Of a stretch of DNA of 64,000 nucleotides, positions 9,533 through 32,128 are shown in pieces (within the stretch, counting starts at the first letter, position 1; every line of letters begins with the position of its first letter). The notes under the pieces are model-generated. The model made no database searches, was not told the origin of the DNA, and saw only the letters and a program-made list of their open reading frames with translations. The stretch is from NCBI GenBank assembly GCA_040302145.1, contig JBEORG010000021.1. The stretch is one strand, 5' to 3'. A program made the position numbers and the translations under genes. This stretch comes from Spirillospora sp. NPDC127506 (GTDB taxonomy: Bacteria; Actinomycetota; Actinomycetes; Streptosporangiales; Streptosporangiaceae).

Positions 9533-9572
9533 GAGGTCGCGGGTAGGGGGCGCGGGGGTCGCGCGGTGGTGG

Positions 9573-10787: not shown

Positions 10788-10836
10788 CGGTCCGGTGCCT
10801 CACGCTTCCGGCTGCGCACCCCCCTACTCCCCGTCC

Positions 10837-11325
10837 CTACCCTCCTGCTCCCGCCTCATGTGACGTGCGGTCCGAGGACGGCCAGACGTACGGGAGATCG
10901 TCCGGGACGCCGGGGAACAGAGGGCCGTAGAAGGCGGGGTCCTTCCGGACGAGCGCCGACCGGTGGCTGAGGTGGAAGTCCGGGTCGCCGAGCCAGGGCG
11001 GCAGCTCGCCGGCCGCGGCCAGCCGGTCCTGCGGCCGCGGCCGCCCGAGGCCCGTCGCCCCGGCCAGGTCGGCGACCAGCGTCCCGGCGCAGGTGTCGGC
11101 GTGGCCGAGGGCGCACCAGCGATCGCACATCTCCAGGCCGTACCGGACGAGCGCCTCCGCGTAGCCGGTCCACATCAGCGCCGCCGGGTGGCGGCGCCAG
11201 CCGTACCCGGGCACGGTGAGCGCCCGGAGCACCTGGATCGTCTCGACGCGCTGCTTGCCGAGCCTCCGCCGGTCCAGCACGCGGGCCGTTTCCGTGAAGT
11301 CCGCATACGGCAGGAATGTCTGCAC
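10837..11325 (-). CDS. MSMEG_6728-like / pyrimidine-dimer DNA glycosylase-like small protein
   Basis: 162 aa. MQTFLPYADFTETARVLDRRRLGKQRVE...HPAALMW resembles the conserved N-terminus of that family. Confidence 0.45.
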   Translation of the reverse strand: MQTFLPYADFTETARVLDRRRLGKQRVETIQVLRALTVPGYGWRRHPAALMWTGYAEALVRYGLEMCDRWCALGHADTCAGTLVADLAGATGLGRPRPQDRLAAAGELPPWLGDPDFHLSHRSALVRKDPAFYGPLFPGVPDDLPYVWPSSDRTSHEAGAGG

Positions 11326-11566
11326 AACCGCCCCCTCGTTCCCCCGTGTCCCCCCCGGTACCTACCCACCGCCGTGCGGGGCGGGCCGGCGGGTGAGATG
11401 GGACACACCGGCGGCGGCGCCCGCGCGGCTTCGGGACCGTTCAAAAGCACAGGTCACGGGCGGGGCTTATCGTTTTCTGACAAACCGCACCGGAAAGGCG
11501 GGCCATGAATTCCCGGAAGGACTGTGCTAAAACCCGTCTGGGGTTCGGCGAAGCGGAGGGAACGCT

Positions 11567-12430
11567 ATGGGCGCGGCGGAGGCTCTCGCACAGGTGGCCG
11601 ACACGGACCGTTATCCGCTGACCGACCTGGACGGCGCCCGCCGGCGCGAGATCGTTTCCCGGACCCGGGACGAACTGGCGAAATCGGGGTGCTGCGTGCT
11701 GCCCGACTTCATTCGTCCCGCATTGCAGGAGGCGCTGCGCGCGGAATGCGCGGCGATCGCCCCGTCCGCCCATTATGACGTCGAAACGGTGAACGCCTAC
11801 AACATCGATGTCGGCACCCCATTGCCGGACGGCCATCCCGGGCGTATCACCGTCCAGCGGGGCAACGCGTTCGTCGCGCGCGACCGCATCCCGGCCGGGT
11901 CCATCGTGCACCGGCTCTATTCGAACGAGCTGTTCCAGCGGTTCGTGGCGAGCTGCTTCGGGCTGCCGCGCGTGCACGAGCTGGGCGACCCGCTGTCGGG
12001 GCTGGTCCTGAACGTGGTCAGGCCGGGGATGGAGCATCCCTGGCATTTCGACACCAACGAGTTCACCGTCAGCCTGCTCACGCAGGAGCCGGAGGAGGGG
12101 GGCGTCTTCGAGTACTGCCCGAACATCAGGACGGCGGAGCGGGAGAACTTCGCCGACGTCCGGGACGTGCTCACCGGGCGCGGCGACCGGTTCGTCCAGC
12201 GGCTCACGCTGCGGCCCGGCGACCTGCAGCTGTTCAAGGGGCGGTACTCGCTGCACCGGGTGAGCACGGTCCGGGGGGACACGGCGCGGCACACGGCGAT
12301 CTTCGCCTACAGCGAGCGCCCGGGGGTCATCGGCAGCGTCGCGCGGACGAGGCAGCTCTTCGGCCGCGTGCTGCCCGAGCACCTGGCGGCGGAGGGGCGC
12401 GCCGTCCGGGTCGACCGGTTGCTGGACTAG
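11567..12430 (+). CDS. Putative Fe(II)/2-oxoglutarate-dependent oxygenase (cupin fold, HxD...H)
   Basis: 287 aa. HPWHFDTNEF (HxD) and a distal His (LHRV), plus an Arg-containing C-terminal strand. Family assignment is by motif only. Confidence 0.5.
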   Translation: MGAAEALAQVADTDRYPLTDLDGARRREIVSRTRDELAKSGCCVLPDFIRPALQEALRAECAAIAPSAHYDVETVNAYNIDVGTPLPDGHPGRITVQRGNAFVARDRIPAGSIVHRLYSNELFQRFVASCFGLPRVHELGDPLSGLVLNVVRPGMEHPWHFDTNEFTVSLLTQEPEEGGVFEYCPNIRTAERENFADVRDVLTGRGDRFVQRLTLRPGDLQLFKGRYSLHRVSTVRGDTARHTAIFAYSERPGVIGSVARTRQLFGRVLPEHLAAEGRAVRVDRLLD

Positions 12431-12443
12431 GAGAGGCCGTTTC

Positions 12444-13253
12444 TTGCGCGTCGACACGACTGGGAAGATCTCGCTCGACCACATCTACACGCGGCCCGAC
12501 CCCCGCGCCTATTTCAGCACGCTCCGCGATCTCGACTACAACATCCCGGAACTGGCGAAACCGCATTTCCTGCGGCTCATCGCCGAATACCGGGAGGCGC
12601 GCCGGGTCGCCGTCCCGACCGTGCTCGACATCGGCTGCTCGTACGGCATCAACGCGGCCCTGGTGAAGCACGGCGCGACGATGGCCGAGCTGTACGATCG
12701 CTACAGCGGCCGCGACGCCCACCGGCGGACGCGCGCCGAACTGCTGGCCCGCGACCGGGAGCTGGTCCGTTCCGGTGAACCCGCGAACCGCGTCCGCTTC
12801 CTCGGCCTGGACGCCTCGGACGGCGCCCTTTCCTACGCGCTCGAGGCCGGTTTCCTCGACGGCGCCGTGCACGCCGACCTGGAAAGCGGCGAGCCGACCG
12901 GCGAACAGCGCGCGCAACTCGCCGCGACGGACGTGGTCATCTCCACGGGCTGCCTCGGCTATGTCACCGAACGCACCATTTCCCGGATCGTCGGCGCCTG
13001 CGCGGCCCGGCCGCCGTGGATGGCGCATTTCATCCTGCGCATGTTCCCCTTCGACCCGATCGCGGACGCCCTGGCCGCCGCCGGATACGAGACCGTCCGC
13101 CGCGACGGGCTGTTCCGGCAGCGGAGGTTCGCGACGCCGGAGGAGCAGGCGTCCGTCCTGGAGCGCCTCGCGGAGCTCGGGGTCGACCCGTCCGGCCTGG
13201 AGACCGGCGGCTGGTACTACGCGCAGCTCTACATTTCCCGCCCGCGCGGCTGA
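12444..13253 (+). CDS. Class I SAM-dependent methyltransferase
   Basis: 269 aa with a glycine-rich SAM motif (VLDIGCSYGINAA). It follows 11567-12430 with a 13-bp gap, suggesting an operon. Confidence 0.65.
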   Translation: MRVDTTGKISLDHIYTRPDPRAYFSTLRDLDYNIPELAKPHFLRLIAEYREARRVAVPTVLDIGCSYGINAALVKHGATMAELYDRYSGRDAHRRTRAELLARDRELVRSGEPANRVRFLGLDASDGALSYALEAGFLDGAVHADLESGEPTGEQRAQLAATDVVISTGCLGYVTERTISRIVGACAARPPWMAHFILRMFPFDPIADALAAAGYETVRRDGLFRQRRFATPEEQASVLERLAELGVDPSGLETGGWYYAQLYISRPRG

Positions 13254-13277
13254 GGCACCGACACAACGAGGAACGAA

Positions 13278-15071
13278 GTGAACGCCAGCGAAGAACTCTC
13301 GTCCCGCACCTTCGGCAACGAGGCGAGCCTGCCGCGCGTGCCGCTGCCCACGCTCGACGCGACCTGCGAGCGGTTCATGGAATGGTGCGGGCCGCTGCTG
13401 ACCGACGACGAGCGCGCCGAGACGGAGGCGGCGCTCGCCGAGTTCGCCCGCCCGGACGGCCCCGGCCGCGTGCTGCACGCGGAGCTCGAACGCTACGACG
13501 CGAGCGAGGGCGTGCACAGCTGGCTCGACACGTTCTGGCCGTACCGGTACCTCGGCCGCCGCGACCGGATCGCGTTGAACGCGAACTTCTTCTTCCTGTT
13601 CAAGGAGTCGCCGGAGGGCCAGGTGGAGCGCGCCGCCGGGCTCATCGCCGGGGCGCTGGACTACAAGCTGCGGCTGGACGAGGAGCGGATCCCGCCGGCC
13701 GTGCAGCGCGGCCGCCCGCTGTCGATGGCGCAGAACCGGTTCCTGTTCTCCACGACGCGCATCCCCGGCGCCGAGCAGGACACCGTCCGGGCGCCCTACA
13801 CCGACGCGTGGCCCGGCCCGTCCCGCGCCCGGCACATCGTGGTCTTCTTCCGCGGCAACATGATCCGGATGGACGTGCTCGGCCCGGACGGCCGCCCCCA
13901 CACGCTGGACGAGCTGCGGGCCGGTCTGGGCACGATCCTGAAGGCGGAGCCGGCCGCGGAGCCGTCCACCGGGCACCTCACGACCAAGGCCCGCGCCGAG
14001 TGGGCGGCGAGCCGCGACGCGCTGCTGGCCCTCGGCAACGAGAAGGCGCTCGACGAGGTTGAGACGGCGCTGTTCTGCGTCTGCCTGGAGGACTTCGCCC
14101 CGGTGAGCGCCCTCGACGCCTGCGACCACCTCCTCCACGGCGACAGCGGCAACCGCTGGTTCGACAAGGCCGTGTCGTTCATCGTGTTCGGCGACGGGAC
14201 GGCGGGCGTCAACGTCGAGCACTGCGGCCTGGACGGCACCACGATCCTCGGCTTCGTCGACACCCTGCTCGGCACGTCCCCCGAGGAGGCGTCCCGGCGT
14301 TCGGGCGCCGCGCCGCAGGGGCTCCCCGCCATCGAGCCGATCGAGTTCGCCCTGGACGGCGCCATGCGGCGGGACATCGAGGACGCCGCGGCCTCGTTCG
14401 CCGCCTACGCCGCCGCGACCGCGACGACGACCGTGTCGTTCGACGACTTCGGCGCCGACGAGGCCAAGCGCCTGAAGACGTCGCCGGACGCGTTCGTCCA
14501 GATGGCCTACCAGCTCGCCCACAAGCGGGCGAAGGGCCTCACCGGCGCCACCTACGAGTCGATCGCCACCCGCCAGTACCGGCACGGGCGCACCGAGGCG
14601 ATGCGCGTCGTCACCCCCGAGGTGCTCGACTTCGTCGCGGCCATGGACGACCCGGCGGCCGGTCCCGAGGCCCGCCGGGACGCCTTCCGCGCCGCCGCCG
14701 AGGCCCATGTCCGCCGCGCGAAGGAGTGCCAGGCCGGGCAGGCGCCCGAGCAGCACCTCTGGGAGCTGCAGCTGATCGCGAAGCGGCGCGGGGCCGAGCT
14801 CGGCGTCACCGAGCCGCTGCCCCTCTTCGACACGCCCGGCTGGCTGAAGATGCGGGACGACTACCTCAGCACCAGCTCGGCGCCGTCCGCCAACATCCGG
14901 TACTTCGGGTTCGGCTCGACGAGCGAGCAGTGCATCGGCGTCGCCTACGTCCTCCTCCCGGACCGCTTCAACCTGTACCTGAGCACCCCGCGGCCGGTCG
15001 CCGGCGCGATGCACGTGTTCGCCGACAGGCTCCGCGAGGCCGTCCGGGAACTCCGCGACCTCCTCTCCTGA
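13278..15071 (+). CDS. Choline/carnitine O-acyltransferase family protein
   Basis: 597 aa. VNVEHCGLDGT matches the catalytic His motif (EHSxxDG) of carnitine/choline acyltransferases. The length and the C-terminal STPR region fit the family. Confidence 0.65.
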   Translation: MNASEELSSRTFGNEASLPRVPLPTLDATCERFMEWCGPLLTDDERAETEAALAEFARPDGPGRVLHAELERYDASEGVHSWLDTFWPYRYLGRRDRIALNANFFFLFKESPEGQVERAAGLIAGALDYKLRLDEERIPPAVQRGRPLSMAQNRFLFSTTRIPGAEQDTVRAPYTDAWPGPSRARHIVVFFRGNMIRMDVLGPDGRPHTLDELRAGLGTILKAEPAAEPSTGHLTTKARAEWAASRDALLALGNEKALDEVETALFCVCLEDFAPVSALDACDHLLHGDSGNRWFDKAVSFIVFGDGTAGVNVEHCGLDGTTILGFVDTLLGTSPEEASRRSGAAPQGLPAIEPIEFALDGAMRRDIEDAAASFAAYAAATATTTVSFDDFGADEAKRLKTSPDAFVQMAYQLAHKRAKGLTGATYESIATRQYRHGRTEAMRVVTPEVLDFVAAMDDPAAGPEARRDAFRAAAEAHVRRAKECQAGQAPEQHLWELQLIAKRRGAELGVTEPLPLFDTPGWLKMRDDYLSTSSAPSANIRYFGFGSTSEQCIGVAYVLLPDRFNLYLSTPRPVAGAMHVFADRLREAVRELRDLLS

Positions 15072-19326: not shown

Positions 19327-19983
19327 ATGAGAGTGCTGGTGGTGGAGGACGAGCGGCTGCTCGCCGACGCGATCGCCGAATGGCTGCGGGACGGCACGCA
19401 CGCCGTCGACCTCGCCTACGACGGGGCCGCGGCGCTGGAGCGCGCCTGCGTCAACGACTACGACGTGATCGTCCTGGACCGCGACCTGCCGCTCGTCCAC
19501 GGCGACGACGTGTGCCAGGAGATCGTGCGGGGCGGGGCGGCGGCGCGGATCCTGATGCTGACCGCGGCCGCCGAGGTCACCGACCGGGTCGACGGGCTCG
19601 GGCTCGGCGCGGACGACTACCTCACCAAGCCGTTCGCGTTCCCGGAGCTGGCCGCCCGCGTCCTCGCGCTCGGCCGGCGGTGCCGCCCCGCCGCGCCGCC
19701 GACGCTGCGGCGCGCCGGCATCGCCCTGGACCCGGCGCGCCGCGAGGTGTTCCGGGACGGGCGGTACGTCCCCCTCGCGAAGAAGGAGTTCGCCGTCCTC
19801 GCCGAGCTGCTGCGCGCGGACGGCGCCGTGGTGTCCGCCGAGCAGCTCCTGGAGAAGGTGTGGGACGAGAACGCCGACCCGTTCACCGGGGCCGTCCGCC
19901 TCACCGTCCTCAAGCTGCGGCGCAAGCTCGCCGGCCCGCCCGTCATCGAGACCGTCAAGGGAGCGGGGTACCGGATCCCATGA
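19327..19983 (+). CDS. OmpR-family response regulator
   Basis: MRVLVVEDERLLADAI...DVIVLDRDLP (receiver) plus a winged-helix C-terminus (YVPLAKKEFAVLAELL...GAGYRI). Confidence 0.9.
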   Translation: MRVLVVEDERLLADAIAEWLRDGTHAVDLAYDGAAALERACVNDYDVIVLDRDLPLVHGDDVCQEIVRGGAAARILMLTAAAEVTDRVDGLGLGADDYLTKPFAFPELAARVLALGRRCRPAAPPTLRRAGIALDPARREVFRDGRYVPLAKKEFAVLAELLRADGAVVSAEQLLEKVWDENADPFTGAVRLTVLKLRRKLAGPPVIETVKGAGYRIP

Positions 19984-21158
19984 GGCTGTCGCTGCGCGCC
20001 CGGCTCACGCTCACCTACGGCGGACTGTTCCTCGTCGCCGGCGTGGTGCTCCTCGGCGCCACGTACGCCCTGTTCGACCAGCAGCTCTCCCGGTCGAGCA
20101 CGAAGGTGCTCGCGACGCGCGTGGACCCCGCCCCGGCGTCCACGGCGCCGCCGGTGCAGCGCCTCCCGGACGACCGGCTGATGAGCGAGACCGAACGCTG
20201 GATGGTGAAGCAGCGCGCCGAGCTGCACGACGCGGCCGTCACCTCCCTGGTCACCCAGGGGTCGATCGCCCTGCTCGTCGTCGGCGGCGCCGCCGCGGCG
20301 TTCGGCTGGCTCATCGCCGGACGGGTCCTGTCCCCGCTGCACCGCGTCACCGAGACGGCCCGCCGCATCGCGGGCGCGCCCGCCGCCGACCGGAGCCTGC
20401 ACGAGCGCATCGCGCTGCGCGGCCCGCACGACGAGGTCAAGGAGCTCGCCGACGCCTTCGACACGATGGTGGAGCGCCTCGACCGCTCCTTCGACGGGCA
20501 GCGTCGCTTCGTGGCCAACGCGTCCCACGAGCTGCGCACCCCGCTCACCCTCGGCCGCGCCCTCGTCGAGGTCGCGATGCACCGGGGGTCGGCGTCCCCG
20601 GACGTCCGGCAGCTCGGCGAGACGCTGCTGCAGATCAACGCGCGCCACGAACGCCTCATCACCGGGCTCCTGCTGCTCGCCCGCTCCGAGAACGAGATCA
20701 CCGACCGCGCCCCCGTCGACTTGGCGGACGTCGTCGCGCACGTCGCGTCCCAGACCGCCGCCGAGGCCGAGGAGTCCGGGATCACCGTCGAGACCGACAC
20801 CGCCGAGGCGGTGACCACCGGGGACGCCCTCCTCCTCGAACGCGTCGTGCAGAACCTCCTGGAGAACGGGCTGCGCCACAACACCGAGGGCGGCCGGGTC
20901 GCCCTCTCCTGCCGCACCGACTCCGGCCGCGCCGTCCTGGAGGTCGCCAACTCGGGACCGGCCGTCCCGCCCTACGAGATCCCGGCCCTGTTCGAACCGT
21001 TCCGCCGCCTCGACGCCGACCGCGTCGTCACCGCCAAGGGGGCGGGCCTCGGGCTGTCCATCGTCCAGTCGATCGTGCGTGCCCACGACGGCACCGTGGC
21101 CGCCGTCCCCCGCGACGAGGGCGGCCTGACCGTCACGGTCACCCTCCCCGGCGGCTAG
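19980..21158 (+). CDS. Sensor histidine kinase (HAMP + HisKA + HATPase_c)
   Basis: MRLSLRARLTLTYGGLFLV... Two TM segments, H-box (ASHELRTPLT) and N/G boxes (LENGLRHN...GAGLGLSIV). Overlaps the RR stop. Confidence 0.9.
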   Translation: MRLSLRARLTLTYGGLFLVAGVVLLGATYALFDQQLSRSSTKVLATRVDPAPASTAPPVQRLPDDRLMSETERWMVKQRAELHDAAVTSLVTQGSIALLVVGGAAAAFGWLIAGRVLSPLHRVTETARRIAGAPAADRSLHERIALRGPHDEVKELADAFDTMVERLDRSFDGQRRFVANASHELRTPLTLGRALVEVAMHRGSASPDVRQLGETLLQINARHERLITGLLLLARSENEITDRAPVDLADVVAHVASQTAAEAEESGITVETDTAEAVTTGDALLLERVVQNLLENGLRHNTEGGRVALSCRTDSGRAVLEVANSGPAVPPYEIPALFEPFRRLDADRVVTAKGAGLGLSIVQSIVRAHDGTVAAVPRDEGGLTVTVTLPGG

Positions 21159-22393: not shown

Positions 22394-22593
22394 GACCTCA
22401 CTCTGATCCACACCGGCACCGTACTTCCCCGGCCGACTGGTAAGGCGCAGGGCCATACGCTGATCCACACGGGCGCCGAATTCCTCACGACGGCCCGCGA
22501 CCGATACCCGCCACTTGTGCATTTGTCCATATTTTTCTTGACAAGTCAGGCGTTACCGTGGGCGAAGGTCCGTCTATCCGTGGAGGGACGGGC

Positions 22594-25368
22594 ATGACGA
22601 CCTATCTCGGCGGGGCGAGCATCGGGGGCGACTCCGTCTCCGGAGACAAGATCGTGCACATGAGCGCGGCGGCGCCGGAGGCCGACCCCCCGCCCCGCCA
22701 GCTTCCGCCGGACGTTCCCGGGTTCACCGGCCGCCGGGACATCCTGGACCGTCTGGGTTCCCTCGTCGACGCGGGCGGCCCCGCCCCGGTGATCATCGCG
22801 CTGACCGGCATGCCGGGCATCGGCAAGACGGCGCTGGCAGTGCACTGGGCTCATCTGGTGTCGGACCGCTTCCCCGACGGCCAGTTGTTCATCGATCTGC
22901 GCGGCTACTCCAAGCGCGGCGCGCTCACGTCCAGGGAGGCACTCGGCCAGGCGTTGCGTACCCTCCGCGTCCCGGACAGCAGGCTCCCGGTCGACGAGGA
23001 CGAACTCGCGGCGCTCTACCGGTCGCGGCTCGCCAACAAGCGCATGCTGATCGTCCTGGACGACGCCGAGGATCCGCGGCAGGTCTATCCGCTGCTCCCG
23101 GGAACGTCCTCATGCGTCGTCATCGTGACCGCCCGCCTGAAACTCACGGCCCTGGTGGCGAGGTACGGCGCGCGTGCGATGGCACTGGATCTGCTGTCGG
23201 AGGCGGAGGCGCTCGACCTCGTCAGCGAGGTCGCCGGACGCGAACGGACCCGGCAGGAGCCGGACGCCGCGGCGGCGCTCGTCCAGATCTGCGCCCGGCT
23301 CCCGCTCGCGCTCCGAGTGGCCGCCGCGAACATCGCCACCCGTCCACAGCAGTCGGTGGCCGACACGGTGCACGCCCTCGCCGAGGGAGACCGGCTTTCC
23401 AAACTGGCCCTGGGCGAAGACCCCGGCGAGGCCGTCGGAGCCGCGTTCGACCTGTCCTACCGGGGGCTCGTCCCCGAGACGCGGCGCGCGTTCCGGCTGC
23501 TCGGACTCGTGGAGGGACCGCATGTCGCGCCGGAGGCGGTCGGCGCGCTTCTCGGAGCGACGCCGGAGGCGGCCCGCCGACTCCTCTACCTGCTGGAGAC
23601 GGCCGGTCTCGTCCAGGCCGTCGGCGGCGGCCGCTACCACCTGCACGAGCTTCTCCGCGAATACGCGCAAGGACGCGCCGCCGAGGAGGACACACCGATC
23701 GTCCAATCGGCGGCGATCAAGCGGCTCGCGATGTGGTACCTCACCACGGCCCAGCAGGCGGGACGGTTCCTCGATCGCTACCGCCGGACCATCCGCCAGG
23801 AGCTGACCGCGCCGCCGGTGAACGCGGACCCGGCCGAAAGGGCCCGCCACCTCGACTGGTTCGCCTCCGAGCAACCGAACCTGATCGCGCTCATCCGACA
23901 GGTCGCCCGGCTGGGCTGGGACCAGCTCACCTGGGAGCTCGCCGATGCCGTCTACGACTTCTTCGAGTTGCGCCGCCACTGCCACGAGAACCTGGAAGTC
24001 CACCGCCTCGGCCTGGAGGCGGCGCGGCGGGGATCCGACCCGCTCGCCTGCTTCTTCATGCACCATCACATCTCGGTCAGCCATCGCGAACTGGGCCAGA
24101 CGGAGGAGGCCCTCCAGGGGGCCGAGGCGGCGCTCCAGCTCAGCATCCAGCTCGAGGACCGCTACGGCGAAGCCGCCGTCCTGGACAACATGGCGAGGAC
24201 GCATCTCCAGGTGAGCGACTACCGCACGGCCCTCGACCTGGGCAAGCAGGCCCTGGAGATCCGCCGTGACATCAGCGACCGGCACGCGGAGGCCACCACT
24301 CTCGACACGTTGGCGCGCGGTTACCAGGGACTCAGCAAGTACACACGGGCCTACGAGTGCGCCGACGGCGCGCTCAAGATCCGCAAGGAGATCGGAGACC
24401 TGCGGGGCGAGGCGGAGACGCTCGACAACCTCGCCCGGATCTACTACGGGACGGGGCGGATCAAGGACTCGCTCACGGCCACGGAGAAGGCGCTGAGAAT
24501 CCGCAGCGACATCGGTGACCGCCACGGCCAAGGCGAGACACTCGCCTTCCTCGCTTACCTCCACATGCGGATCGGCCGGCACGAACAGGCCTGCGAGCAC
24601 ATCGAACACGCCCTCGCCATCCGGCGCGGAATCGCCGATCCGCAAGGGGAAGGCCAGGCGCTGGTCCATCTCTCCACGATCTGCCGACGGCTCGGCCGGT
24701 ATGAGAGCGCCCTCGCGGCCGGCCTGGAGGCCCTCGACATCTTGCAGCAGTTGCGTGACAGGCACGGCGAGGCGGAGGCCCTCGATAATCTGAGCCGCTG
24801 CTACCGCCGACTGGGCCTGTACGAGCGGGCCAGGGAGGACGTGAACCGCGCGCTCACCATCCGCAGGTCGATCGGCGACCGCCTCGGCGAGGCCAACACG
24901 CTGAACGCGCTGGGACTCGTGGAACTCCACGCCGGACGGCTCGGCAGGGCACGGCGGGCGGCGAAGCTGTCGCTCCGGCTCTGCCACTCGATCGACGACA
25001 AGCGCGGCATCGCCGGCTCACTCGATCTGCTCGCCAAGGTCTACCTGGACATGGGGCTGTATCAGAAGGCACGGCGCACCGCCGAAAAGGCTCTCAACGT
25101 GGCCGGAGACATAGGGCAGCGCTACGGGCAGATCATCACGCTGAGTGCGCTCGGCGAGATCCTCCGGCGGCTGGGGCACCCCGACGAGGCCCTGGCCCAC
25201 GCACGGGCGGCGAGAGAACTCGCCAAGCAGGCGGGCGACCTGCACGAGGAGATCAATATCCTCCGGCTGCAGGCGAAGATCCACATTGATCTGGGACAGG
25301 TCGACGAGTCTCGGATCATCACTGCACAAGTCGCGAACATGACACGGGATCTTGGACAACTCCCGTAG
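22594..25368 (+). CDS. STAND NTPase: NB-ARC (AAA+ P-loop) domain followed by ~12 TPR repeats; short Gly/Asp-rich N-terminal motif
   Basis: ALTGMPGIGKTALA (Walker A), MLIVLDDAED (Walker B), then repeated TPR units (...AEAL.N.A..Y...G.Y..A.....AL.I...). ATG at 22594 has RBS ggaggga and TTGACA at ~22537. Confidence 0.85.
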   Translation: MTTYLGGASIGGDSVSGDKIVHMSAAAPEADPPPRQLPPDVPGFTGRRDILDRLGSLVDAGGPAPVIIALTGMPGIGKTALAVHWAHLVSDRFPDGQLFIDLRGYSKRGALTSREALGQALRTLRVPDSRLPVDEDELAALYRSRLANKRMLIVLDDAEDPRQVYPLLPGTSSCVVIVTARLKLTALVARYGARAMALDLLSEAEALDLVSEVAGRERTRQEPDAAAALVQICARLPLALRVAAANIATRPQQSVADTVHALAEGDRLSKLALGEDPGEAVGAAFDLSYRGLVPETRRAFRLLGLVEGPHVAPEAVGALLGATPEAARRLLYLLETAGLVQAVGGGRYHLHELLREYAQGRAAEEDTPIVQSAAIKRLAMWYLTTAQQAGRFLDRYRRTIRQELTAPPVNADPAERARHLDWFASEQPNLIALIRQVARLGWDQLTWELADAVYDFFELRRHCHENLEVHRLGLEAARRGSDPLACFFMHHHISVSHRELGQTEEALQGAEAALQLSIQLEDRYGEAAVLDNMARTHLQVSDYRTALDLGKQALEIRRDISDRHAEATTLDTLARGYQGLSKYTRAYECADGALKIRKEIGDLRGEAETLDNLARIYYGTGRIKDSLTATEKALRIRSDIGDRHGQGETLAFLAYLHMRIGRHEQACEHIEHALAIRRGIADPQGEGQALVHLSTICRRLGRYESALAAGLEALDILQQLRDRHGEAEALDNLSRCYRRLGLYERAREDVNRALTIRRSIGDRLGEANTLNALGLVELHAGRLGRARRAAKLSLRLCHSIDDKRGIAGSLDLLAKVYLDMGLYQKARRTAEKALNVAGDIGQRYGQIITLSALGEILRRLGHPDEALAHARAARELAKQAGDLHEEINILRLQAKIHIDLGQVDESRIITAQVANMTRDLGQLP

Positions 25369-25382
25369 AATGCCTGTAGTGC

Positions 25383-26504
25383 GTGAGTAAGTGCGATTTT
25401 GGGACGACCACCTCCCGGGTCTCCGGCAAGGCCCGACCACGTTATCGAGGACGCGCTTTGCTCGAACCAGACGACCGATTTCTCACCTGCCGCGAAGTTC
25501 TGCGCTGGTATTACGGGCACCGGGATCCGCTGTTTCTGGGCCCTCCTCGGCGCCACTACAGCCTGCACTACACGTATTGGCACGAGGGGCGGCCATACGT
25601 GGCCTCGAAGGTGCGCAAGGAACGTGGACGAGTCCCTTTTAATCGACAATTCGCCATAATTCGGGCACTGGAGACAACCGCGGCGGGATCCATCGTGCGG
25701 TCTCCGATCACGACGCGGGACGGCCACCAGTGGGTCACCGGCCCTCGCAACCAGTGGTTCGTCCGCCCCTACACCGAGCACGACAGCGCACCGAATTGGC
25801 TGTCCGCTCAGCTGGTCGAGGACGCCGCGCGGAAACTGGCGCTCACGCATCGCACGTCCGGCGTCATCGACCCCGGCGTATTGCGCCATCCCGCGCACGG
25901 TCTGCGAATCTACGACTGGGGGATGTTCGACGTTCTCCGGCATCCCGACGCCATTGTCGTGGACATGCGCGCCCAGGGACGGCCTCCCGAGCACATCCTG
26001 ACCGTCCACGCGGGGCTCACCCGGCTGCGCGCCGCGAGAAAGGGGCTGGATCTCGGCCCTGAAGGGCTCACCCACCACGATGTGCACAAGGAGAACCTGC
26101 TCGTCAAGGACGAGAAAGTCGTCGAGATCGTCGACTGGGATCGCGCACATTGGGACGTCCAGTGGTACGACGTCACGCTGGCCGCCCTGCATATCGCACA
26201 TTGCCGGCAGGCCACCCTGCGCTGGGATCTGGCCGACGCGTTCGTCGACGCCTACCAGGCCGAATCGGGGTACGAAATCAAGCCGGATGCGCTGGGGTGG
26301 TTGTTCCGGTTCACGGCGGTGCGGAATCTGGCGGTTTCGCGGTCGCCGGGGAAGTGGGCGCGGCTCGTGCGCGGGGTCGAGGAGCGGTGGGGGGACGTGC
26401 CGTCAGTGTTCGTGGGTGATCTTGTTTCCGAGGACCAGGTCGCCGCGGACGTGGACGTCGCCGCTGAAGACGGTGGTTCCCTGGGGGCCGTCGGGGTCGG
26501 GTGA
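25383..26504 (+). CDS. Aminoglycoside-phosphotransferase-like (APH/CotS/HSK-II) small-molecule kinase
   Basis: Brenner/catalytic loop HHDVHKENLLV followed by VDWD. The 3' end overlaps the convergent 26403-27194 gene by ~100 bp, so the true C-terminus is uncertain. Confidence 0.55.
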   Translation: MSKCDFGTTTSRVSGKARPRYRGRALLEPDDRFLTCREVLRWYYGHRDPLFLGPPRRHYSLHYTYWHEGRPYVASKVRKERGRVPFNRQFAIIRALETTAAGSIVRSPITTRDGHQWVTGPRNQWFVRPYTEHDSAPNWLSAQLVEDAARKLALTHRTSGVIDPGVLRHPAHGLRIYDWGMFDVLRHPDAIVVDMRAQGRPPEHILTVHAGLTRLRAARKGLDLGPEGLTHHDVHKENLLVKDEKVVEIVDWDRAHWDVQWYDVTLAALHIAHCRQATLRWDLADAFVDAYQAESGYEIKPDALGWLFRFTAVRNLAVSRSPGKWARLVRGVEERWGDVPSVFVGDLVSEDQVAADVDVAAEDGGSLGAVGVG

Positions 26505-27194
26505 GCGGCGGGCCGGGGCGGGTCGGTTCTGGGCGCCCGCCAGGTACATCCACGCTTCGGTCGCCGTCTCCTTGACCTTGAGGGTCACGTGCTCGAAGGC
26601 GTCCGGGGCTATCAGGCCGTCCAGGTGGGTCACGAAGGCGTCGTAGACGAACGGCGAGACGATGAAGCCCAGGTCGGCGCCCGTCTCGGCGAGGGCCGTC
26701 TTGAGGACGGGGGCCTCCATGAGGCGGGCCGTCTGGATGATGACGTGGCCGTTCAGGCCCTCGGCGTCGGCGGTGACGGGGCCGACGTGCAGGGCCGCGC
26801 GGAGTTGGACGCGGACGGCGGCGCTCGCGATCCGGTTGTGCCGGTGGAGCGCGACGGCCAGGTGCCCGGCGAGCGGGTCGATGAGGGACGCGGTGCGGAC
26901 GGCCGGCGAGGCGATCACCAGGGCGCCGTCGCCGCGGTCCTCGCGGTAGATGTCGGCGGCCCCGACGCCCGACGCCTCCAGCGCTGACAGCAGGACGCGG
27001 TAGACGACCTCGCGGACGAGCCGGCGGTCCTCGTCGGTGCGGGACGGGTCGCCGAAGCCCGCGACGTCGCAGAACAGGACGGAGCAGTTCAGCCCCGACC
27101 AGGGCGCTAGGGCGCCGGCGGGCGCGCGGTCGAGTGGTGCGTCCACAGCACGAGTGAACGCCCCCGGCGGCCGGTTGTCCATGTCACCGGGCAC
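26403..27194 (-). CDS. Small class-III nucleotidyl-cyclase-like (CHD-like) protein with conserved C-terminal Gly/Asp motif
   Basis: SVLFCDVAGFGD resembles the metal-binding start of adenylyl/guanylyl cyclase catalytic domains (LFADIVGFT). The C-terminus TTVFSGDVHVRGDLVLGNKITHEH is similar to the N-terminus of the NB-ARC protein. Confidence 0.5.
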   Translation of the reverse strand: MPGDMDNRPPGAFTRAVDAPLDRAPAGALAPWSGLNCSVLFCDVAGFGDPSRTDEDRRLVREVVYRVLLSALEASGVGAADIYREDRGDGALVIASPAVRTASLIDPLAGHLAVALHRHNRIASAAVRVQLRAALHVGPVTADAEGLNGHVIIQTARLMEAPVLKTALAETGADLGFIVSPFVYDAFVTHLDGLIAPDAFEHVTLKVKETATEAWMYLAGAQNRPAPARRSPDPDGPQGTTVFSGDVHVRGDLVLGNKITHEH

Positions 27195-27204: not shown

Positions 27205-27996
27205 TCAGCGGTGCGCGGTCCGGCGGCGCAGCTCGCGCGGGCTGATCCCGAAACGCTGCCGGAAGGCGTGGCTCAGCGCGCTCGCCGAGGAGAAGCCCGT
27301 CGCGTGCGCGAGGTCGGTGATGGTGACGTGCCGGTAGAGCGGGTTGCGCAGCCGGTCCCGGACGAGCCGGAGGCGCTCCTCGCGGATCAGCTCGCGCGGC
27401 GTCGTCCCGGCGCGCTGCAGGGCGAGCTGGATCTGCCGCAGCGACCAGCCGAGGTCCTGCGCCATCGCGGTGCCGGTGAGGCCGGGGTCGGTGGCGTGCT
27501 CGCGGACGTACCGGCGCACGACCGCCTCCACCTCGGCGAGATGGCCGGGCGAGGGCGGGCGGTGCCGGCCCGCGACGGCCAGGCACAGCAGCTCGGTGAT
27601 CCGGTCGCAGGCGGCGTCGAACTGCGGCTCGGAGAGGGTGTCGCGCTCCTCCCCCACGGCCCGCACCATGTCGGCGACGACGCGGCCGAGGCCGGCGGTC
27701 AGGTCGAGGCCCGTCACCGGGCGGGGCGGCAGGTCCAGCCGCCCGTCCACCTCGTGCACCGGGATCGTCATGACGAGGGCGCGGGCGGGGCGCCGCTGGA
27801 CGACCCGGAGCGGCGCGGCGGGCGGGACGAGGCCGCCCGTGCCGGGGCCGAGCCGCGCCTCGCGGCCGTCCTGGAGCATGAGGAGCTCGCCGTGCAGCGG
27901 CAGCAGGAACCGGTAGCCGCCGGCGGTGAACGGCTCGGCGCGGTCCGCCGTGCAGAGGACGAGCCGGTAGGCGCCCGGCCCGCCGAGGTCGTCCAC
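27205..27996 (-). CDS. AraC/XylS-family transcriptional regulator
   Basis: C-terminal dual HTH (TITDLAHATGFSSASALSHAFRQRFGISPRELRRR). Confidence 0.8.
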   Translation of the reverse strand: MDDLGGPGAYRLVLCTADRAEPFTAGGYRFLLPLHGELLMLQDGREARLGPGTGGLVPPAAPLRVVQRRPARALVMTIPVHEVDGRLDLPPRPVTGLDLTAGLGRVVADMVRAVGEERDTLSEPQFDAACDRITELLCLAVAGRHRPPSPGHLAEVEAVVRRYVREHATDPGLTGTAMAQDLGWSLRQIQLALQRAGTTPRELIREERLRLVRDRLRNPLYRHVTITDLAHATGFSSASALSHAFRQRFGISPRELRRRTAHR

Positions 27997-28293
27997 CGCA
28001 GGCCCTTCCGCCGGTCCGTCCCGAGCCGGCCCCGTCCCGGCACGGTGATCGCTTGCGGAGCCGAGGGTAGTACGATCACCGCCGCCGAATCAGGTGAATC
28101 CAGCGGAAAGTAACGCGATTCAGACTGTGGGTGATCTTGCGATGCGCCCACCGGCAAGTTCCTTGCGCGCGAGCACAAGCACACCTGCGCGAACGGCCTT
28201 ACGGTGCCGAATCTGTGGCGTGTTCTGCGCCACCCCACTCCCGGCCGTGCGGCCGGTCCACCTCGCCCGAAACCCCCTGCATCCGAGGATCTG

Positions 28294-29574
28294 ATGGAGC
28301 AATTCCTCCTGGCGGCGGCGTTCGTCATCGTGGCGGGCGCCGGCATCGCCGCCGGCGTCCTGCTGGTACGCCAGCGGCAGGCGACCGCCGAGCTCCGCGC
28401 GCAGAACGCCGCGCTGGCCCGCGGCCTCGACCTGCGCGAGAAGGAGCTGCGGCACCTCGCGGACGTCCGGCTGCCCGAGCTGATGGAGTCCCTCACCAAC
28501 CCGGGCGTGCGCGTCACCGGCCCGCTGCACGACCTGGACCGCGAAGCGCCCGCCTACGGGCAGGCGATGCAGACCGTCCTGGACCTGTTCGCCGGGTCCG
28601 CCGCCCGCGTCCGGGAACGCGCGGACAAGTCCGCGAAGTCGACGCTGCGCGCGATGATGCGCGCCGTGCAGAGCCTCGCGAACGAGCAGCAGCTGGCCAT
28701 CTCGCACATGCAGGAGCGCCACGACGACCCCGACGTGCTGGAGGGCCTGCTCCGCATCGACCACATGAACGCCCAGCTCGGCCGGCGCGCCCAGGCCACC
28801 GCCGTGCTGTGCGGGTCGTGGCCGGGGCAGCAGCGCTCGGCGTCGTCGCTCACCGACGTGGTGCGCGGCGCGACCTCCCGCATCCGCGACTACCTGCGGA
28901 TCAACCTGGAGGGGACGCCGAACACCGCGGTGACTAGCCGCGCCGTCGAGCCGGTCGTGCTGACGCTCGCCGAGCTGCTGGACAACGCCGCGCGGCACTC
29001 CCGCCCCGACACCGCCGTCGAGGTCAACTTCCGCTCCGCGCACAACGGCGTCGCCATCACGATCGACGACGCGGGCGTCGCGATGGACGCCGACGAGCTG
29101 AAGCGCGCGGCCGAGCTGCTGTCCGGCGACGCGTCGGTGGACATCCACCGGCTCGGCGACCCGCCCCGCGTCGGGTTCGCGGTCGCGGGCGTGCTCGCCG
29201 CCCGGTACGGGTTCCGGGTGTCGGTCGACAGCCAGTCCCCCTACGGCGGCGTGCGGGCCGTCGTCTTCGTGCCGAGCGCGCTGCTGACGTCCCTGCCGGA
29301 CGAGCGCGCGCCCGAACCCGCGGCCGCGCCCCGCACGGCCGACGCCGCCGCCACGGCGGGCGGGCTGCCGAAGCGGAGCCGCGTCGCCGTGGCCGAACGT
29401 CCCGCCGAGCCCGACGCCGGCGACGGCGCGGCCGGCGCCGGGGAGCGGCCGCAGGCCCGCCCGGCGCGGGAGACCGCCGCGGGCCTCGGCGCCTGGCAGC
29501 GCGGGACGCGGTCCGGCCGCGCCGCCACACCGCCCGACGGCGAGGGCACCGACAGCAAGGACCTGCGGCCATGA
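28294..29574 (+). CDS. cvnA: Conservon CvnA-like sensor histidine-kinase-like ATPase (nitrate/nitrite-sensor-like N-terminus, HATPase_c)
   Basis: MEQFLLAAAFVIVAGAG (TM), then an HATPase-like region (LAELLDNAARHS...DDAGVAMD). It is followed by cvnB/C/D homologues in canonical order. Confidence 0.75.
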   Translation: MEQFLLAAAFVIVAGAGIAAGVLLVRQRQATAELRAQNAALARGLDLREKELRHLADVRLPELMESLTNPGVRVTGPLHDLDREAPAYGQAMQTVLDLFAGSAARVRERADKSAKSTLRAMMRAVQSLANEQQLAISHMQERHDDPDVLEGLLRIDHMNAQLGRRAQATAVLCGSWPGQQRSASSLTDVVRGATSRIRDYLRINLEGTPNTAVTSRAVEPVVLTLAELLDNAARHSRPDTAVEVNFRSAHNGVAITIDDAGVAMDADELKRAAELLSGDASVDIHRLGDPPRVGFAVAGVLAARYGFRVSVDSQSPYGGVRAVVFVPSALLTSLPDERAPEPAAAPRTADAAATAGGLPKRSRVAVAERPAEPDAGDGAAGAGERPQARPARETAAGLGAWQRGTRSGRAATPPDGEGTDSKDLRP

Positions 29575-30020
29575 ACTCTGCGGCCACGAACAAGGGGTGG
29601 GACGGCGCGATGGACGACGGTACGAACCGGCTCGGCTGGATGCTGGACGACGCGCTGCGGATGCCGGAGACCCGCTACGCGATCCTGCTGTCGGCCGACG
29701 GCCTGCTGATGGCGCACTCCGAGCGGATCAGCCGGGACGAGGCGGAGCGGCAGGCGGCCGGCATGGCGGGCCTGCAGTCGCTCGCCCGCAGCACCGCCGA
29801 GTTCTGCGGCGACGCGGGCACCACGTGGCGGCAGACGGTGAACGAGTTCGACGACGGCTACGTGTTCCTCGTCGCGGCCGGCCCCGGCGCCTACCTCGCG
29901 GTGTCGGCGACGCAGCACGTCGACATGGAGACCGTGTCGTTCCGCCTCCAGGAACTCGTGCAGCGGCTGGGCAAGGAGCTGACCACCCCGCCGCGGCCGG
30001 GCGCGGGCAGTCCCGCATGA
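29571..30020 (+). CDS. cvnB: Roadblock/LC7 domain protein (CvnB)
   Basis: 149 aa, LGWMLDDALRMPETRYAILLSADGLLMAHS. ATGA overlap with cvnA. Confidence 0.85.
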   Translation: MNSAATNKGWDGAMDDGTNRLGWMLDDALRMPETRYAILLSADGLLMAHSERISRDEAERQAAGMAGLQSLARSTAEFCGDAGTTWRQTVNEFDDGYVFLVAAGPGAYLAVSATQHVDMETVSFRLQELVQRLGKELTTPPRPGAGSPA

Positions 30021-30373
30021 CCCCGCGCAGGAACGAGCGCGCGCTGGTGCGCCCGCACGTCGTCACCGGCGGCCGGGCGCACCCCACCCGCAACGTGTTC
30101 GACCTCGTCACGCTCGTCATCGCCACCGGCGACCTGCCGCGCAAGGGGCTGTCCCCGGAGAAGCTCCGCATCCTGGGGCTGTGCCGGGGCGGCGCGCTGT
30201 CGGTCGTCGAGATCGCCGGGCACCTCGGGCTGCCCGTCGGGGTCGTCAAGGTGCTGCTCTCCGACCTGGTCGACAGCGGGCACCTCACCACCCGGGCCGC
30301 GGCGCCCGGGGCCCAGAAGTCGAAGGCCCGGCTCCTTCAGGAGGTGCTCGATGGACTCCGCGCTCGCCTCTGA
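30017..30373 (+). CDS. cvnC: DUF742 protein (CvnC)
   Basis: MTPRRNERALVRPHVVTGGRAHPTRN...ALSVVEIAGHLGLPVGVVKVLLSDLVDSGHL. This is the conserved conservon third gene. Overlaps cvnB. Confidence 0.8.
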   Translation: MTPRRNERALVRPHVVTGGRAHPTRNVFDLVTLVIATGDLPRKGLSPEKLRILGLCRGGALSVVEIAGHLGLPVGVVKVLLSDLVDSGHLTTRAAAPGAQKSKARLLQEVLDGLRARL

Positions 30374-30947
30374 CGCGGCCTACGTCCGCGACAGCGTGCG
30401 GACCGCCGTCAAGATCCTCATCGTGGGGCACTTCGCCGTCGGCAAGACCACCTACGTCGGGACGCTGTCGGAGATCCGCCCGCTGCGCACCGAGGAGCGG
30501 ATGACGCAGGCCGGCGCGACCGTCGACGACCTCGCCGGCATCCGCGACAAGACGACCACCACCGTCGCGATGGACTTCGGCCGCCTCACGCTCAGCGACG
30601 ACCTCGTCCTGTACCTGTTCGGCGCGCCCGGCCAGGAGCGCTTCACCCGGCTGTGGGACGACCTGGCGCGCGGCGCGCTCGGCGCGCTGGTCCTCGTGGA
30701 CACGGCGCGGCTCAAGGAGTCGTTCGCCGTCATGGACCTCGTGGAGAAGCAGGGCCTGCCGTACGCGGTGGCCGTCAACCACTTCGAGGGCTCGCCCGTC
30801 TTCCCGGACGCCGAGGTGCGCGAGGCCCTCGACCTCGCCCCCGCGACCCCGCTGGTCACCTGCGACGCCCGCGACCGCAGGTCGTCCACCGAGGCGCTCA
30901 TCTCACTCGTCGACCACCTCCTCACCCTGGATGGGGAACCCGCATGA
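30351..30947 (+). CDS. cvnD: Small Ras-like GTPase / ATP-GTP-binding protein (CvnD)
   Basis: VKILIVGHFAVGKTT (P-loop), DFG..., LFGAPGQERF, VAVNHFEG. Overlaps cvnC. Confidence 0.85.
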   Translation: MDSALASDAAYVRDSVRTAVKILIVGHFAVGKTTYVGTLSEIRPLRTEERMTQAGATVDDLAGIRDKTTTTVAMDFGRLTLSDDLVLYLFGAPGQERFTRLWDDLARGALGALVLVDTARLKESFAVMDLVEKQGLPYAVAVNHFEGSPVFPDAEVREALDLAPATPLVTCDARDRRSSTEALISLVDHLLTLDGEPA

Positions 30948-32128
30948 CCGAACCGCAGCGCTTCCCGCTGTACGGCCCCGAGTACGCGCAGGACCCGGCC
31001 GCGACCTACGCCCGGATGCGCGCCCACGGCGACCTCGTGCCCGTCGAGCTGGCCCCCGGCGTCCCGGCGACGCTGGTCATCGGGTACGAGGCGGCGCTGG
31101 AGATCCTCCGCGACCCGGACACGTTCCCGCGCTGCAGCGAGGTCTGGGAGGAGGAGGTCGGCCCGCACTGCCCGGTGCTGCCGATGATGATGGCGCGGCC
31201 GAACGCGCTGTTCACCAACGGCTCCGTCCACGCGCGGCTCCGGTCGGTGATCGTCGACAGCCTGGACCGCGTCGACCCGGCGTCGCTGCGCGAGCACGTC
31301 GAGACCAGCGCGGACACCCTCATCGACCGGTTCGCCGACGACGGCAAGGCCGACCTCATCGGCCAGTACGCGCGGACGCTGCCGCTGCTGGTGTTCAACG
31401 AGATGTTCGGCTGCCCCCGCGACATCGGCGACAAGCTCGTCCGCGGCATGAGCGCGATCTTCGACGCCGAGGGCGCCGAGGAGGGCAACGCGCTGCTCGC
31501 CCAGGCCACCGGCGAGCTGGTGGCGTACAAGCGGCAGCGGCCGGGCGCGGACGTGACGTCGTGGATGATGCGCCATCCCGCCGGGCTCGACGACATGGAG
31601 ATGGCGCACCAGCTGACGCTGCTGGTCGGCGCCGGCACCGAGCCGGAGCAGAACCTCATCGCCAACGGCATCCTGCTGCTGCTGTCGGACGACCGGTTCG
31701 GCGGCGACCTGTCGGGCGGCAGCATGCCCGTCGAGGACGCCCTGGACGAGATCCTGTGGACCGACCCGCCGATGGCCAACTACGGGACGACGTTCCCCCG
31801 CCAGGACGTCGACTTCCACGGGCACACGCTGCCCGCCCACCAGCCGATCCTGATCAGCTACGCCGCGGCGAACACCGACCCGTCCCGGGCGACGGCCGAC
31901 CGGAAGGGCAACCGCGCGCACCTGTCCTACGCGGGCGGGCCGCACACCTGCCCGGCCAAGAGCCACTCGCGGCTGATCGCGTCCGCCGCGATCGAGGTGC
32001 TCCTCGACCGGCTGCCCGACCTGGACCTGGCCGTCCCGAGGGACGCGCTGGAGTGGCGGCCCGGCCCGTTCCACCGCGCCCTCGTCGCGCTGCCGGTCAC
32101 CTTCCCGCCGGCGGGGAGGCGTCACTGA
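30944..32128 (+). CDS. Cytochrome P450 (conservon-associated, CvnE-like)
   Basis: 394 aa. ATGA overlap with cvnD. I-helix-like AGTEPEQN, and a Cys-ligand loop YAGGPHTCPAKSHSRL (a degenerate FxxGxHxCxG). Confidence 0.75.
   Translation: MTEPQRFPLYGPEYAQDPAATYARMRAHGDLVPVELAPGVPATLVIGYEAALEILRDPDTFPRCSEVWEEEVGPHCPVLPMMMARPNALFTNGSVHARLRSVIVDSLDRVDPASLREHVETSADTLIDRFADDGKADLIGQYARTLPLLVFNEMFGCPRDIGDKLVRGMSAIFDAEGAEEGNALLAQATGELVAYKRQRPGADVTSWMMRHPAGLDDMEMAHQLTLLVGAGTEPEQNLIANGILLLLSDDRFGGDLSGGSMPVEDALDEILWTDPPMANYGTTFPRQDVDFHGHTLPAHQPILISYAAANTDPSRATADRKGNRAHLSYAGGPHTCPAKSHSRLIASAAIEVLLDRLPDLDLAVPRDALEWRPGPFHRALVALPVTFPPAGRRH

Follow-up and report, generated by a model that had tools for sequence, protein, structure and literature searches.

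How a nucleotide-binding receptor might be coupled to a separately encoded enzyme is the question raised by a three-gene set in Spirillospora sp. NPDC127506 (GenBank assembly GCA_040302145.1, contig JBEORG010000021.1), from which a stretch of 64,000 nucleotides, hereafter the window, was analysed. In this set, a STAND NTPase with NB-ARC and TPR regions (the receptor) and an aminoglycoside phosphotransferase (APH)-like kinase are encoded on the plus strand, and a class III cyclase-like protein (the effector) is encoded convergently on the minus strand. An initial annotation of this locus had noted that the receptor begins, and the effector ends, with related short segments, and had proposed that these pair the two proteins within a three-component sensor-effector module; all sequences quoted in it were found where it had placed them. 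Public annotation labels the three genes 'TPR protein', 'phosphotransferase' and 'hypothetical protein'. On balance, and with a confidence only slightly above even, we propose that the set is a split NOD-like receptor (NLR) signalling module of filamentous actinomycetes, in which the receptor would switch the cyclase-like enzyme on by prion-like templating. The features of the locus are as follows (positions are those of the window, and the basis of each assignment is given in brackets).

22594..25368, plus strand: receptor, an NLR-like STAND NTPase of 924 amino acids with N-terminal motif, Pro-rich linker, NB-ARC domain and TPR sensor (open reading frame (ORF), Pfam)
22594..22662, plus strand: receptor-side motif MTTYLGGASIGGDSVSGDKIVHM, residues 1-23 (conservation in related receptors, shuffle test)
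22762-23343, plus strand: NB-ARC domain, residues 57-250 (Pfam span)
22807..22830, plus strand: Walker A GMPGIGKT, residues 72-79 (position of the regular-expression match)
24016..25347, plus strand: TPR repeats, about residues 475-918, presumed ligand sensor (Pfam TPR_12, TPR_10, TPR_MalT)
25458..26504, plus strand: APH-fold kinase of 348 amino acids, with an alternative GTG start at 25383 (Pfam, AlphaFold2 (AF2), Foldseek)
26073-26096, plus strand: kinase catalytic loop HHDVHKEN
26133-26141, plus strand: kinase DWD
26403..26504: overlap of about 100 nucleotides where the 3' ends of the kinase and effector genes converge (coordinates)
26403..27194, minus strand: effector of 263 amino acids with class III cyclase-like domain, Pro-rich linker and C-terminal motif (ORF, homologues, AF2, Foldseek)
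26535..27098, minus strand: cyclase-homology domain, about residues 33-220 (invariant columns, hidden Markov model (HMM) alignment, fold matches)
26478-26534, minus strand: variable Pro-rich linker of the effector (precedes the motif)
26406..26477, minus strand: effector-side motif TTVFSGDVHVRGDLVLGNKITHEH, residues 240-263 (conservation in homologues)

A short motif is shared by the receptor N-terminus and the effector C-terminus

The first 23 residues of the receptor and the last 24 residues of the effector follow the consensus F.G.V.V.GD.V.G.K[IV], a strand-turn peptide of ~22 residues made up of three phi-x-phi-x-G-[DN] units. Local alignment of the window pair gave a score of 47, which was matched by 10 of 20,000 shuffles; when the pair was aligned in the register of the family, 9 of 23 positions were identical and the score was 44, a value reached in 0 of 51,000 shuffles. 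Among 120 effector homologues examined, about 50 carry the tail, which follows a linker of variable length and sequence and is kept down to ~45% domain identity; its F, G, D, G and K are invariant. Moreover, when a profile built from effector tails only was searched against 13,515 six-frame ORFs, the best non-effector matches were receptor N-termini (E values of 2.9e-6, 5e-3, 0.03 and weaker). With a joint profile searched over 2.4 million residues, 42 true sites all scored E < 2e-3, whereas noise stayed at E > 6. The shuffle tests and the effector-only profile together bear out the claim that the two short segments are clearly related, their similarity being above chance.

The wider distribution of the motif was assessed with a profile built from the window and the P-numbered homologous sequences. 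Against 1.84 billion cluster representatives, 19 proteins were recovered at E <= 1e-3, all of them either cyclase-like effectors matched at the C-terminus or one of a few repeat proteins of beta-helical type; Bell, TIR or other effector types with the motif were not found among these representatives. A 40-residue version of the motif, searched against an index of 5.8 billion proteins, returned two fragments alone. The repeat proteins P0178, P0182, P0183, P0184 and P0185 are unrelated to the module and contain V.V.GDL..G as a recurring unit, and P0185 is a clear Bactofilin match (4.6e-17). A further sequence from the search of representatives, P0181, is an N-terminal fragment of 68 residues that carries the motif twice in tandem, as AQIAGDMVMGDKNVT and as TAGGDIVLGNKITN.

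The motif-bearing effector is linked to a motif-bearing receptor

Gene neighbourhoods were compared in 80 loci with effector homologues (23 with tail-bearing effectors and 57 with tail-less paralogues), all from Actinomadura, Spirillospora, Actinoallomurus or Streptosporangiaceae records. An NB-ARC/TPR gene was present within 10 kb of 17 of the 23 tail-bearing effectors, as compared with 0 of the 57 tail-less ones (Fisher 1e-12). With the exception of locus L044, all linked receptors carry the motif, which is located about 70 residues before Walker A; the pairs in L021 (receptor TWFNGPVRAQGDLVAGVKVVQ, effector TRFDGQVHIDGDLVIGSKFVD) and L065 (receptor TKFTGLVRANGDIVAGDKVIMR, effector HFHEAVRVKGDLVLGDKIIER) are examples. 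The receptor-linked loci span three clades, across which identity falls to 35% for the receptor and to 45% for the effector. Recurrence of the motif beside NB-ARC/TPR genes in related genomes, which the initial annotation had proposed as a check, is thus documented by 17 loci.

In clade 1 (the window, L001, L002, L005, L007, L011 and L012), the kinase and receptor converge on the effector. Clade 2 (L014-L018) has the same arrangement, with identities to the window of about 51% for the effector, about 40% for the kinase and about 60% for the receptor; its effectors possess an extra N-terminal cyclic nucleotide monophosphate (cNMP)-binding domain, with or without a CRP helix-turn-helix (HTH). 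In clade 3 (L021, L039, L041 and L065), a longer receptor has the effector gene directly behind it, in the same orientation, and the kinase is absent. Kinase, receptor and effector are all collinear in L044. In L016 (11749-17625), two tandem NB-ARC/TPR genes, both motif-bearing, lie beside one tailed effector, and the motif of the second receptor, GPVFSGEVRISGDAVMGDKIVV, is the most effector-like on the receptor side (E 2.9e-6 with the effector-only profile).

Eight loci were found to encode 'all-in-one' proteins, in which a single polypeptide joins a cNMP-binding domain, HTH_Crp and the same cyclase-like domain, by way of a Pro-rich linker, to a Walker-A STAND NTPase and TPR. The motif is missing from all eight of these fusion proteins. 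These motif-less fusions indicate that the cyclase-like domain is the output of the receptor and that the motif pair takes the place of a covalent link. The loci in question are L023, L032, L033, L046, L047, L050, L054 and L072; their ORFs are about 1200-1550 amino acids long (positions around 9000-13600), their repeats are TPR_10/TPR_12, and it is unusual in itself for a CRP-type transcription factor to be fused with both a cyclase and an NLR.

These observations bear on two alternative explanations. According to the first, the genes are unrelated neighbours, namely an AfsR-like regulator and a resistance kinase, with a low-complexity coincidence in the motif. Such a reading would agree with the generic names given by public annotation and with the resemblance of the NB-ARC part to AfsR/SARP regulators. 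However, the receptor is devoid of a DNA-binding domain (see below), both partners keep the motif in three clades, the tail strictly goes together with an adjacent receptor gene, fusion proteins exist, and the kinase family is restricted to the module. Contradicted by the linkage, motif conservation and fusion data, this explanation was rejected, and we regard its probability as negligible. According to the second, the TPR domain of the receptor binds the effector tail as a ligand, and the receptor N-terminal copy is an autoinhibitory mimic that is displaced by the effector or by a signal. TPR domains commonly bind short terminal peptides, and the likeness of the two termini would be explained. 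However, several effectors extend 10-30 residues beyond the motif (P0030, P0042, P0044 and L039), so that a free C-terminus is not conserved, and the all-in-one fusions lose the motif yet keep TPR, which fits a motif that substitutes for a linker. We therefore consider it very improbable that the tail serves as a TPR ligand.

The receptor combines an AfsR-like core with the motif

The receptor ORF starts at ATG 22594, with GGAGGG ahead of it, and public annotation agrees with this start (924 amino acids). Pfam matches were obtained for NB-ARC (E 1e-14, residues 57-250) and TPR_12 (E 9e-64), and a Pfam scan revealed no DNA-binding domain in the receptor, SARP and BTAD included. The NCBIfam AfsR model aligned only at model positions 281-969, downstream of SARP/BTAD, and scored 397 bits against a cut-off of 1430. 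The receptor is therefore an NB-ARC/TPR core of AfsR-like type that has MTTYLGGASIGGDSVSGDKIVHM and a Pro-rich linker where AfsR has its SARP part. AfsR and the SARP-NB-ARC-TPR proteins of Streptomyces share the homologous NB-ARC and TPR core (NCBIfam AfsR, plasmid matches) but carry SARP DNA-binding and BTAD domains where the receptor carries its 23-residue motif. With SARP and HTH both missing (Pfam, NCBIfam), the view that this is not a classical AfsR-type regulator was upheld. A PADLOC search of the receptor found no match to a known defence system; a generic TPR model alone was matched.

The effector has a class III cyclase fold and retains most catalytic positions

No Pfam, NCBIfam or PADLOC match was obtained for the effector, and Guanylate_cyc (PF00211) missed it even at E <= 10. 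Its AlphaFold model has a pLDDT (predicted local distance difference test) of 81.7, and the top 50 Foldseek hits of this model were all adenylyl or guanylyl cyclase catalytic domains (E 5e-8, target template modelling (TM) score up to 0.78). The resemblance of the core to class III nucleotidyl cyclases, initially noted by eye, was therefore corroborated at the level of the predicted fold. Moreover, a profile of the effector family searched against PDB sequences matched the guanylyl cyclase 3et6 at E 3e-4, with both metal-binding Asp aligned. Catalytic positions were read from HMM alignments to 3et6, 3mr7 and 4p2m. Across 28 effector sequences of 44-84% identity, no variation was seen at the metal ligands D43 and D89, at the transition-state residue R157 or at E85. 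E85 and G146 occupy the base-specifying positions; G146, like I153, was placed by motif register. The same Glu/Gly specificity pair occurs in the guanylyl cyclase Cya2, and on account of this pair the product would possibly be cGMP. Active sites of class III cyclases are built across a dimer interface, so that clustering driven by the motif would be a natural mechanism of activation.

The effector is like the class III cyclases Cya2, Ma1120, Rv1625c and CYG12 in fold, in the two metal Asp, in the transition-state Arg and in the Glu at the purine-specifying position. It is unlike them in being below Pfam detection, in the Ile at the Asn position, in the added C-terminal signalling motif and in an activity that is predicted only. 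In >90% of the window's clade, the canonical transition-state Asn is Ile (I153), and as a consequence of this replacement the activity may be low or altered. Cyclase activity is thus plausible, not assured. A third alternative is built on these very features: the cyclase-like domain could be dead, or make something other than a cNMP, and serve instead to bind nucleotide or as a scaffold, its polymerisation being the signal or having a toxic effect. In favour of this are the Ile, the unmatched Guanylate_cyc model and the occurrence of cyclase domains without activity in related conflict systems (Kaur, Burroughs, Iyer and Aravind 2020, PMC7159879). On the other side stand the metal Asp pair, the Arg and the Glu/Gly positions, kept across the 28 sequences; the Asn itself, retained in two distant tail-bearing members (P0179 and P0186); and the repeated fusion to cNMP-binding/CRP modules, which points to a connection with cyclic nucleotides. 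We judge a dead or diverted cyclase domain to be unlikely.

A dedicated kinase accompanies the pair in most receptor-linked loci

The kinase belongs to the APH family (Pfam APH, E 1.5e-9 and 1.6e-9 in separate scans). Its AF2 model has a pLDDT of 85, with APH(9)-Ia, type II homoserine kinase, AmiN (amicoumacin kinase) and NahK as the nearest Foldseek structures, and its modelled fold is accordingly that of small-molecule kinases. H206, D208, N213 and D226-W-D228 are invariant, leaving the HxDxxxxN loop and the DxD metal site intact. Because all NCBIfam models of resistance enzymes scored far below their cut-offs, the kinase is not a known APH resistance enzyme. Translation probably starts at TTG 25458, the public start (348 amino acids), rather than at GTG 25383. 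PADLOC searches yielded nothing for the kinase, and TCAD9 was matched below threshold by relatives of the kinase, with the catalytic loop alone covered.

The kinase gene was found in 12 of the 17 receptor-linked loci and in two gene orders. The family comprises 24 clusters at E <= 1e-3 among 5.8 billion proteins, all from the same taxa as the module, and, as judged from these searches, appears confined to it. The initial annotation, which saw an APH-like kinase as the third component of one module, was therefore right in counting it as a member. Active APH-like kinases are present, although rare, in the conflict systems surveyed by Kaur et al. (PMC7159879).

As a side observation, the last ~33 residues of the kinase (SVFVGDLVSEDQVAADVDVAAEDGGSLGAVGVG) correspond to the conserved effector motif read in antisense. 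The kinase model shows these residues as disordered (pLDDT ~26); they are 'conserved' in clade 1, absent from clade-2 kinases and probably the result of passive read-through. Convergent transcription over the kinase/effector overlap could regulate the effector. The Thr at the motif starts was also considered as a phospho-site tied to the kinase, and this candidate was rejected: clade 2 has the kinase without a conserved Thr, and clade 3 has the Thr without the kinase.

The motif resembles amyloid signalling motifs rather than effector-associated domains

The initial annotation had explained the matching termini by effector-associated domains (EADs), which Kaur et al. (PMC7159879) describe as small globular domains, mostly alpha-helical or alpha+beta. 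Its central idea, that a homotypic motif couples a separately encoded enzyme to a STAND NTPase, was retained. Its classification was not, in that the motif is a ~22-residue strand-turn peptide after a Pro-rich linker and not a globular effector-associated domain. At E <= 10, neither the first 49 residues of the receptor nor the whole effector matched any model in a Pfam copy whose content of EAD models was left unchecked. As in EAD-coupled systems, the core NTPase carries one copy of the module and a neighbouring enzymatic or signalling protein carries a second, and cNMP cyclases and APH-like kinases are among the domains associated with those systems (PMC7159879). Unlike them, the locus has a peptide motif on an AP-ATPase-type NB-ARC/TPR protein rather than globular domains in vWA-MoxR, iSTAND or GTPase systems, and the window genes fit no vWA-MoxR or GTPase-centred system of that survey.

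The known kind that fits better is the amyloid signalling associated with NLRs. Dyrka et al. (2020; bioRxiv 10.1101/2020.01.06.895854; J Mol Biol 2020) described bacterial amyloid signalling sequences (BASS) of about 25 residues, located at NLR N-termini and effector C-termini in filamentous bacteria; these motifs form fibrils and prions, and the receptor motif seeds the effector motif. The same study (10.1101/2020.01.06.895854) listed a guanylate cyclase domain among the non-Bell effectors, found 91% of pairs to be collinear and recorded 'all-in-one' counterparts for other amyloid-linked effectors. The locus agrees with BASS pairs in the motif of ~20-25 residues on an NB-ARC/TPR NLR N-terminus and on the C-terminus of a closely linked effector (within about 5 kb), in the filamentous actinomycete host, in a beta-strand character that is predicted, at low confidence, for a motif placed after a flexible linker and in the existence of 'all-in-one' fusions. 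It differs in that the effector is a cyclase-like enzyme and not a Bell pore-forming domain, in that a conserved kinase gene lies between convergent partners in two of three clades, and in that fibrils were shown for BASS whereas the present motif is known from sequence alone. By analogy, the anatomy of the motif fits that of BASS amyloid signalling motifs.

The closest-looking published family is BASS4 (e.g. QVILSGIELTGDLKAGDITQ), the other BASS families being dissimilar by eye. As judged by a self-built BASS4 HMM and by the strings in Table S2 of Dyrka et al. (both described below), the motif family would be new, outside the published Bell-linked sets. Also apparently new, from sequence comparison, are the cyclase-like effector family, which occurs in split, fused and orphan states, and its conserved dedicated kinase.

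A model for the module and the evidence that bears on it

In the model that we favour, the NB-ARC/TPR protein would be the sensor, and a ligand on its TPR region would cause the NTPase to oligomerise. Oligomerisation would gather the N-terminal ~22-residue motifs, and the clustered motifs, each resembling one winding of a bactofilin- or HET-s-type beta-solenoid, would form a stacked cross-beta nucleus. This nucleus would recruit and template the same type of motif at the effector C-terminus, and the stacking would bring cyclase-homology domains into proximity. Since these domains need dimerisation for their active sites, stacking would then switch cyclic nucleotide synthesis on. The signal would be read by CRP-like cNMP-binding modules, of the kind fused to the same cyclase domain in sister clades. 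The kinase, co-transcribed with the receptor, would be a dedicated accessory whose most likely task is either to produce or eliminate the small-molecule signal or to gate the receptor. Indirect support from sequence comparison suggests that the motif may represent one winding of a stackable beta-helix, and amyloid formation by it is what we infer by analogy with BASS. Templating, activation by proximity, the product, the ligand and the role of the kinase all belong to this proposal, and the biological role may lie in defence or in developmental signalling.

In HET-s, one repeat of ~21 residues forms one winding of a beta-solenoid. The module is like HET-s/NWD2 and the fungal NLR signalosomes in that a receptor N-terminal motif templates an effector C-terminal prion-forming region (there), as is proposed here. 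It is unlike them in having a single motif copy on the effector instead of two pseudorepeats, and an enzyme as output instead of a membrane-targeting HeLo domain; sequence homology is not detectable. A bacterial parallel is the Bab/Agp pair of E. coli (BASS11; bioRxiv 10.1101/2024.11.07.622273), for which two adjacent genes with a common amyloid motif and activation of the effector by the sensor through amyloid signalling are reported. That pair has a Bell-type cell-death effector, a different sensor and a role in abortive infection, whereas no PADLOC system was matched here.

Several findings weigh against the favoured model, among them the Ile at the Asn position and the failure of the Pfam cyclase model to match the effector. 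The effector-only profile misses the window's own receptor at E < 10, the receptor-side motif being fairly diverged in that clade. Across clades, cognate motif pairs are no more alike than non-cognate ones, and clade-specific or pair-specific covariation between cognate motifs was tested and none was seen. AF2 draws only a low-confidence hairpin for the motif (strands 242-250 and 253-259, pLDDT 47-65). Effectors with an intact tail occur without a nearby receptor or kinase in four to six species (L003, L004, L008, L010, perhaps L009 and L034); A. madurae, A. bangladeshensis and A. livida are among these orphan cases. In the window's clade the partners are convergent, with a gene between them, and depart from the collinear order of most BASS pairs, which is a tendency rather than a strict requirement; clade 3 has that order, receptor then effector. 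Finally, the BASS4 match is weak: the HMM, built from the BASS4 sequences of Table S2, gave 4.5 bits for the window tail and 3-7.5 bits overall, with the match restricted to the V.V.G[DN]L..G[DN] core, and GDLV, GDKI and GNKI are not in Table S2 of Dyrka et al.

A non-amyloid form of coupling has to be weighed at this point. Here the terminal motif copies would act as a homotypic adaptor, pairing in a stoichiometric beta-sheet complex and recruiting the cyclase to the oligomerised receptor without self-propagating templating, much as Kaur et al. describe for coupling by EADs. Such an adaptor agrees equally well with the evidence from pairing, synteny and fusions, pair-specific covariation was not seen, and EAD2-type adaptors do recruit cNMP cyclases (Kaur et al., PMC7159879). 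However, ~22 residues after a disordered linker are too short for an independently folded domain, EADs are small, globular and mostly alpha-helical and no Pfam model matches the motif, the motif resembles single windings of polymer-forming beta-helices, and its architecture is common to experimentally validated BASS motifs. We consider a stoichiometric adaptor somewhat unlikely.

The templating model can be extended to a complete non-lethal pathway of three genes leading from amyloid to cNMP, which we put forward tentatively, as a possibility that falls short of even. In this extension, the NLR would nucleate a beta-solenoid polymer of cyclases, CRP-cyclase paralogues would read the signal, the kinase would make or destroy the receptor ligand, and the motif would lie outside BASS1-10. 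Candidate signal readers or amplifiers are the tail-less cNMP-binding-cyclase paralogues. Such paralogues were seen elsewhere in module-carrying genomes (L058, L063, L051, L067, L075, L070, L077 and L078).

Where the effector is a pore-forming cell-death protein, amyloid signalling from NLRs is an established mechanism in fungi and has more recently become one in bacteria; to our knowledge, activation of an enzyme by such templating through induced proximity is not yet shown. If the model is true, prion-like templating would here turn on a second-messenger synthase instead of unleashing a pore-forming killer. The module would be a compact system in which to test this, with a cyclase that depends on dimerisation, a motif of one winding, and natural fused and split versions to compare. 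Moreover, the conserved accessory kinase may point to the signal sensed by the receptor, and the module provides a functional context for the cyclase-like and CRP-cyclase proteins of Actinomadura and relatives, a large family that lacks annotation.

Genomic context and loss of the module

The set lies in a high-GC actinomycete chromosomal region (GC ~0.72), and the nearest relatives of the window genes are from Actinomadura and Spirillospora. Module copies on plasmids or phages were searched for and none was found. One further gene adjoins the set:

27205..27996, minus strand: AraC-family regulator, directly upstream of the effector (Pfam HTH_18, 9e-17)

In clade 1 the AraC gene is kept beside the effector, also in loci that lack receptor and kinase. 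We treat it as context and as a possible regulator rather than as an established part of the module. In the orphan loci L003, L004, L008 and L010, AraC and effector (about 10001-10790) are directly beside a gene for a FAD oxidase. L006 (11596-14459) comes from a Spirillospora strain in which the module seems to be in decay, with two ORFs in place of an intact receptor gene and no kinase. On this sequence evidence, L006 and the four orphan loci would be places where the module is being lost. A 2.6-kb insertion between AraC and effector in L001 was considered as part of the module and rejected, for it holds a LysR regulator and secreted proteins that are unrelated.

The proportion of G and C at third codon positions (GC3) is 0.88 in the receptor and 0.79 in the kinase, as compared with 0.93-0.99 in neighbouring genes. 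From its atypical composition, the receptor-kinase pair may be an insertion between the FAD oxidase gene and the effector. Overall GC dips to 0.664 at 24001-26000 of the window, as compared with about 0.72-0.75 around it. Beyond the set, ORF translations judged by eye suggest a two-component pair at about 19327-21158 and, at 28204-32128, a conservon-like set (histidine-kinase-like ATPase, roadblock/LC7-like protein, DUF742-like protein and small GTPase) followed by a cytochrome P450.

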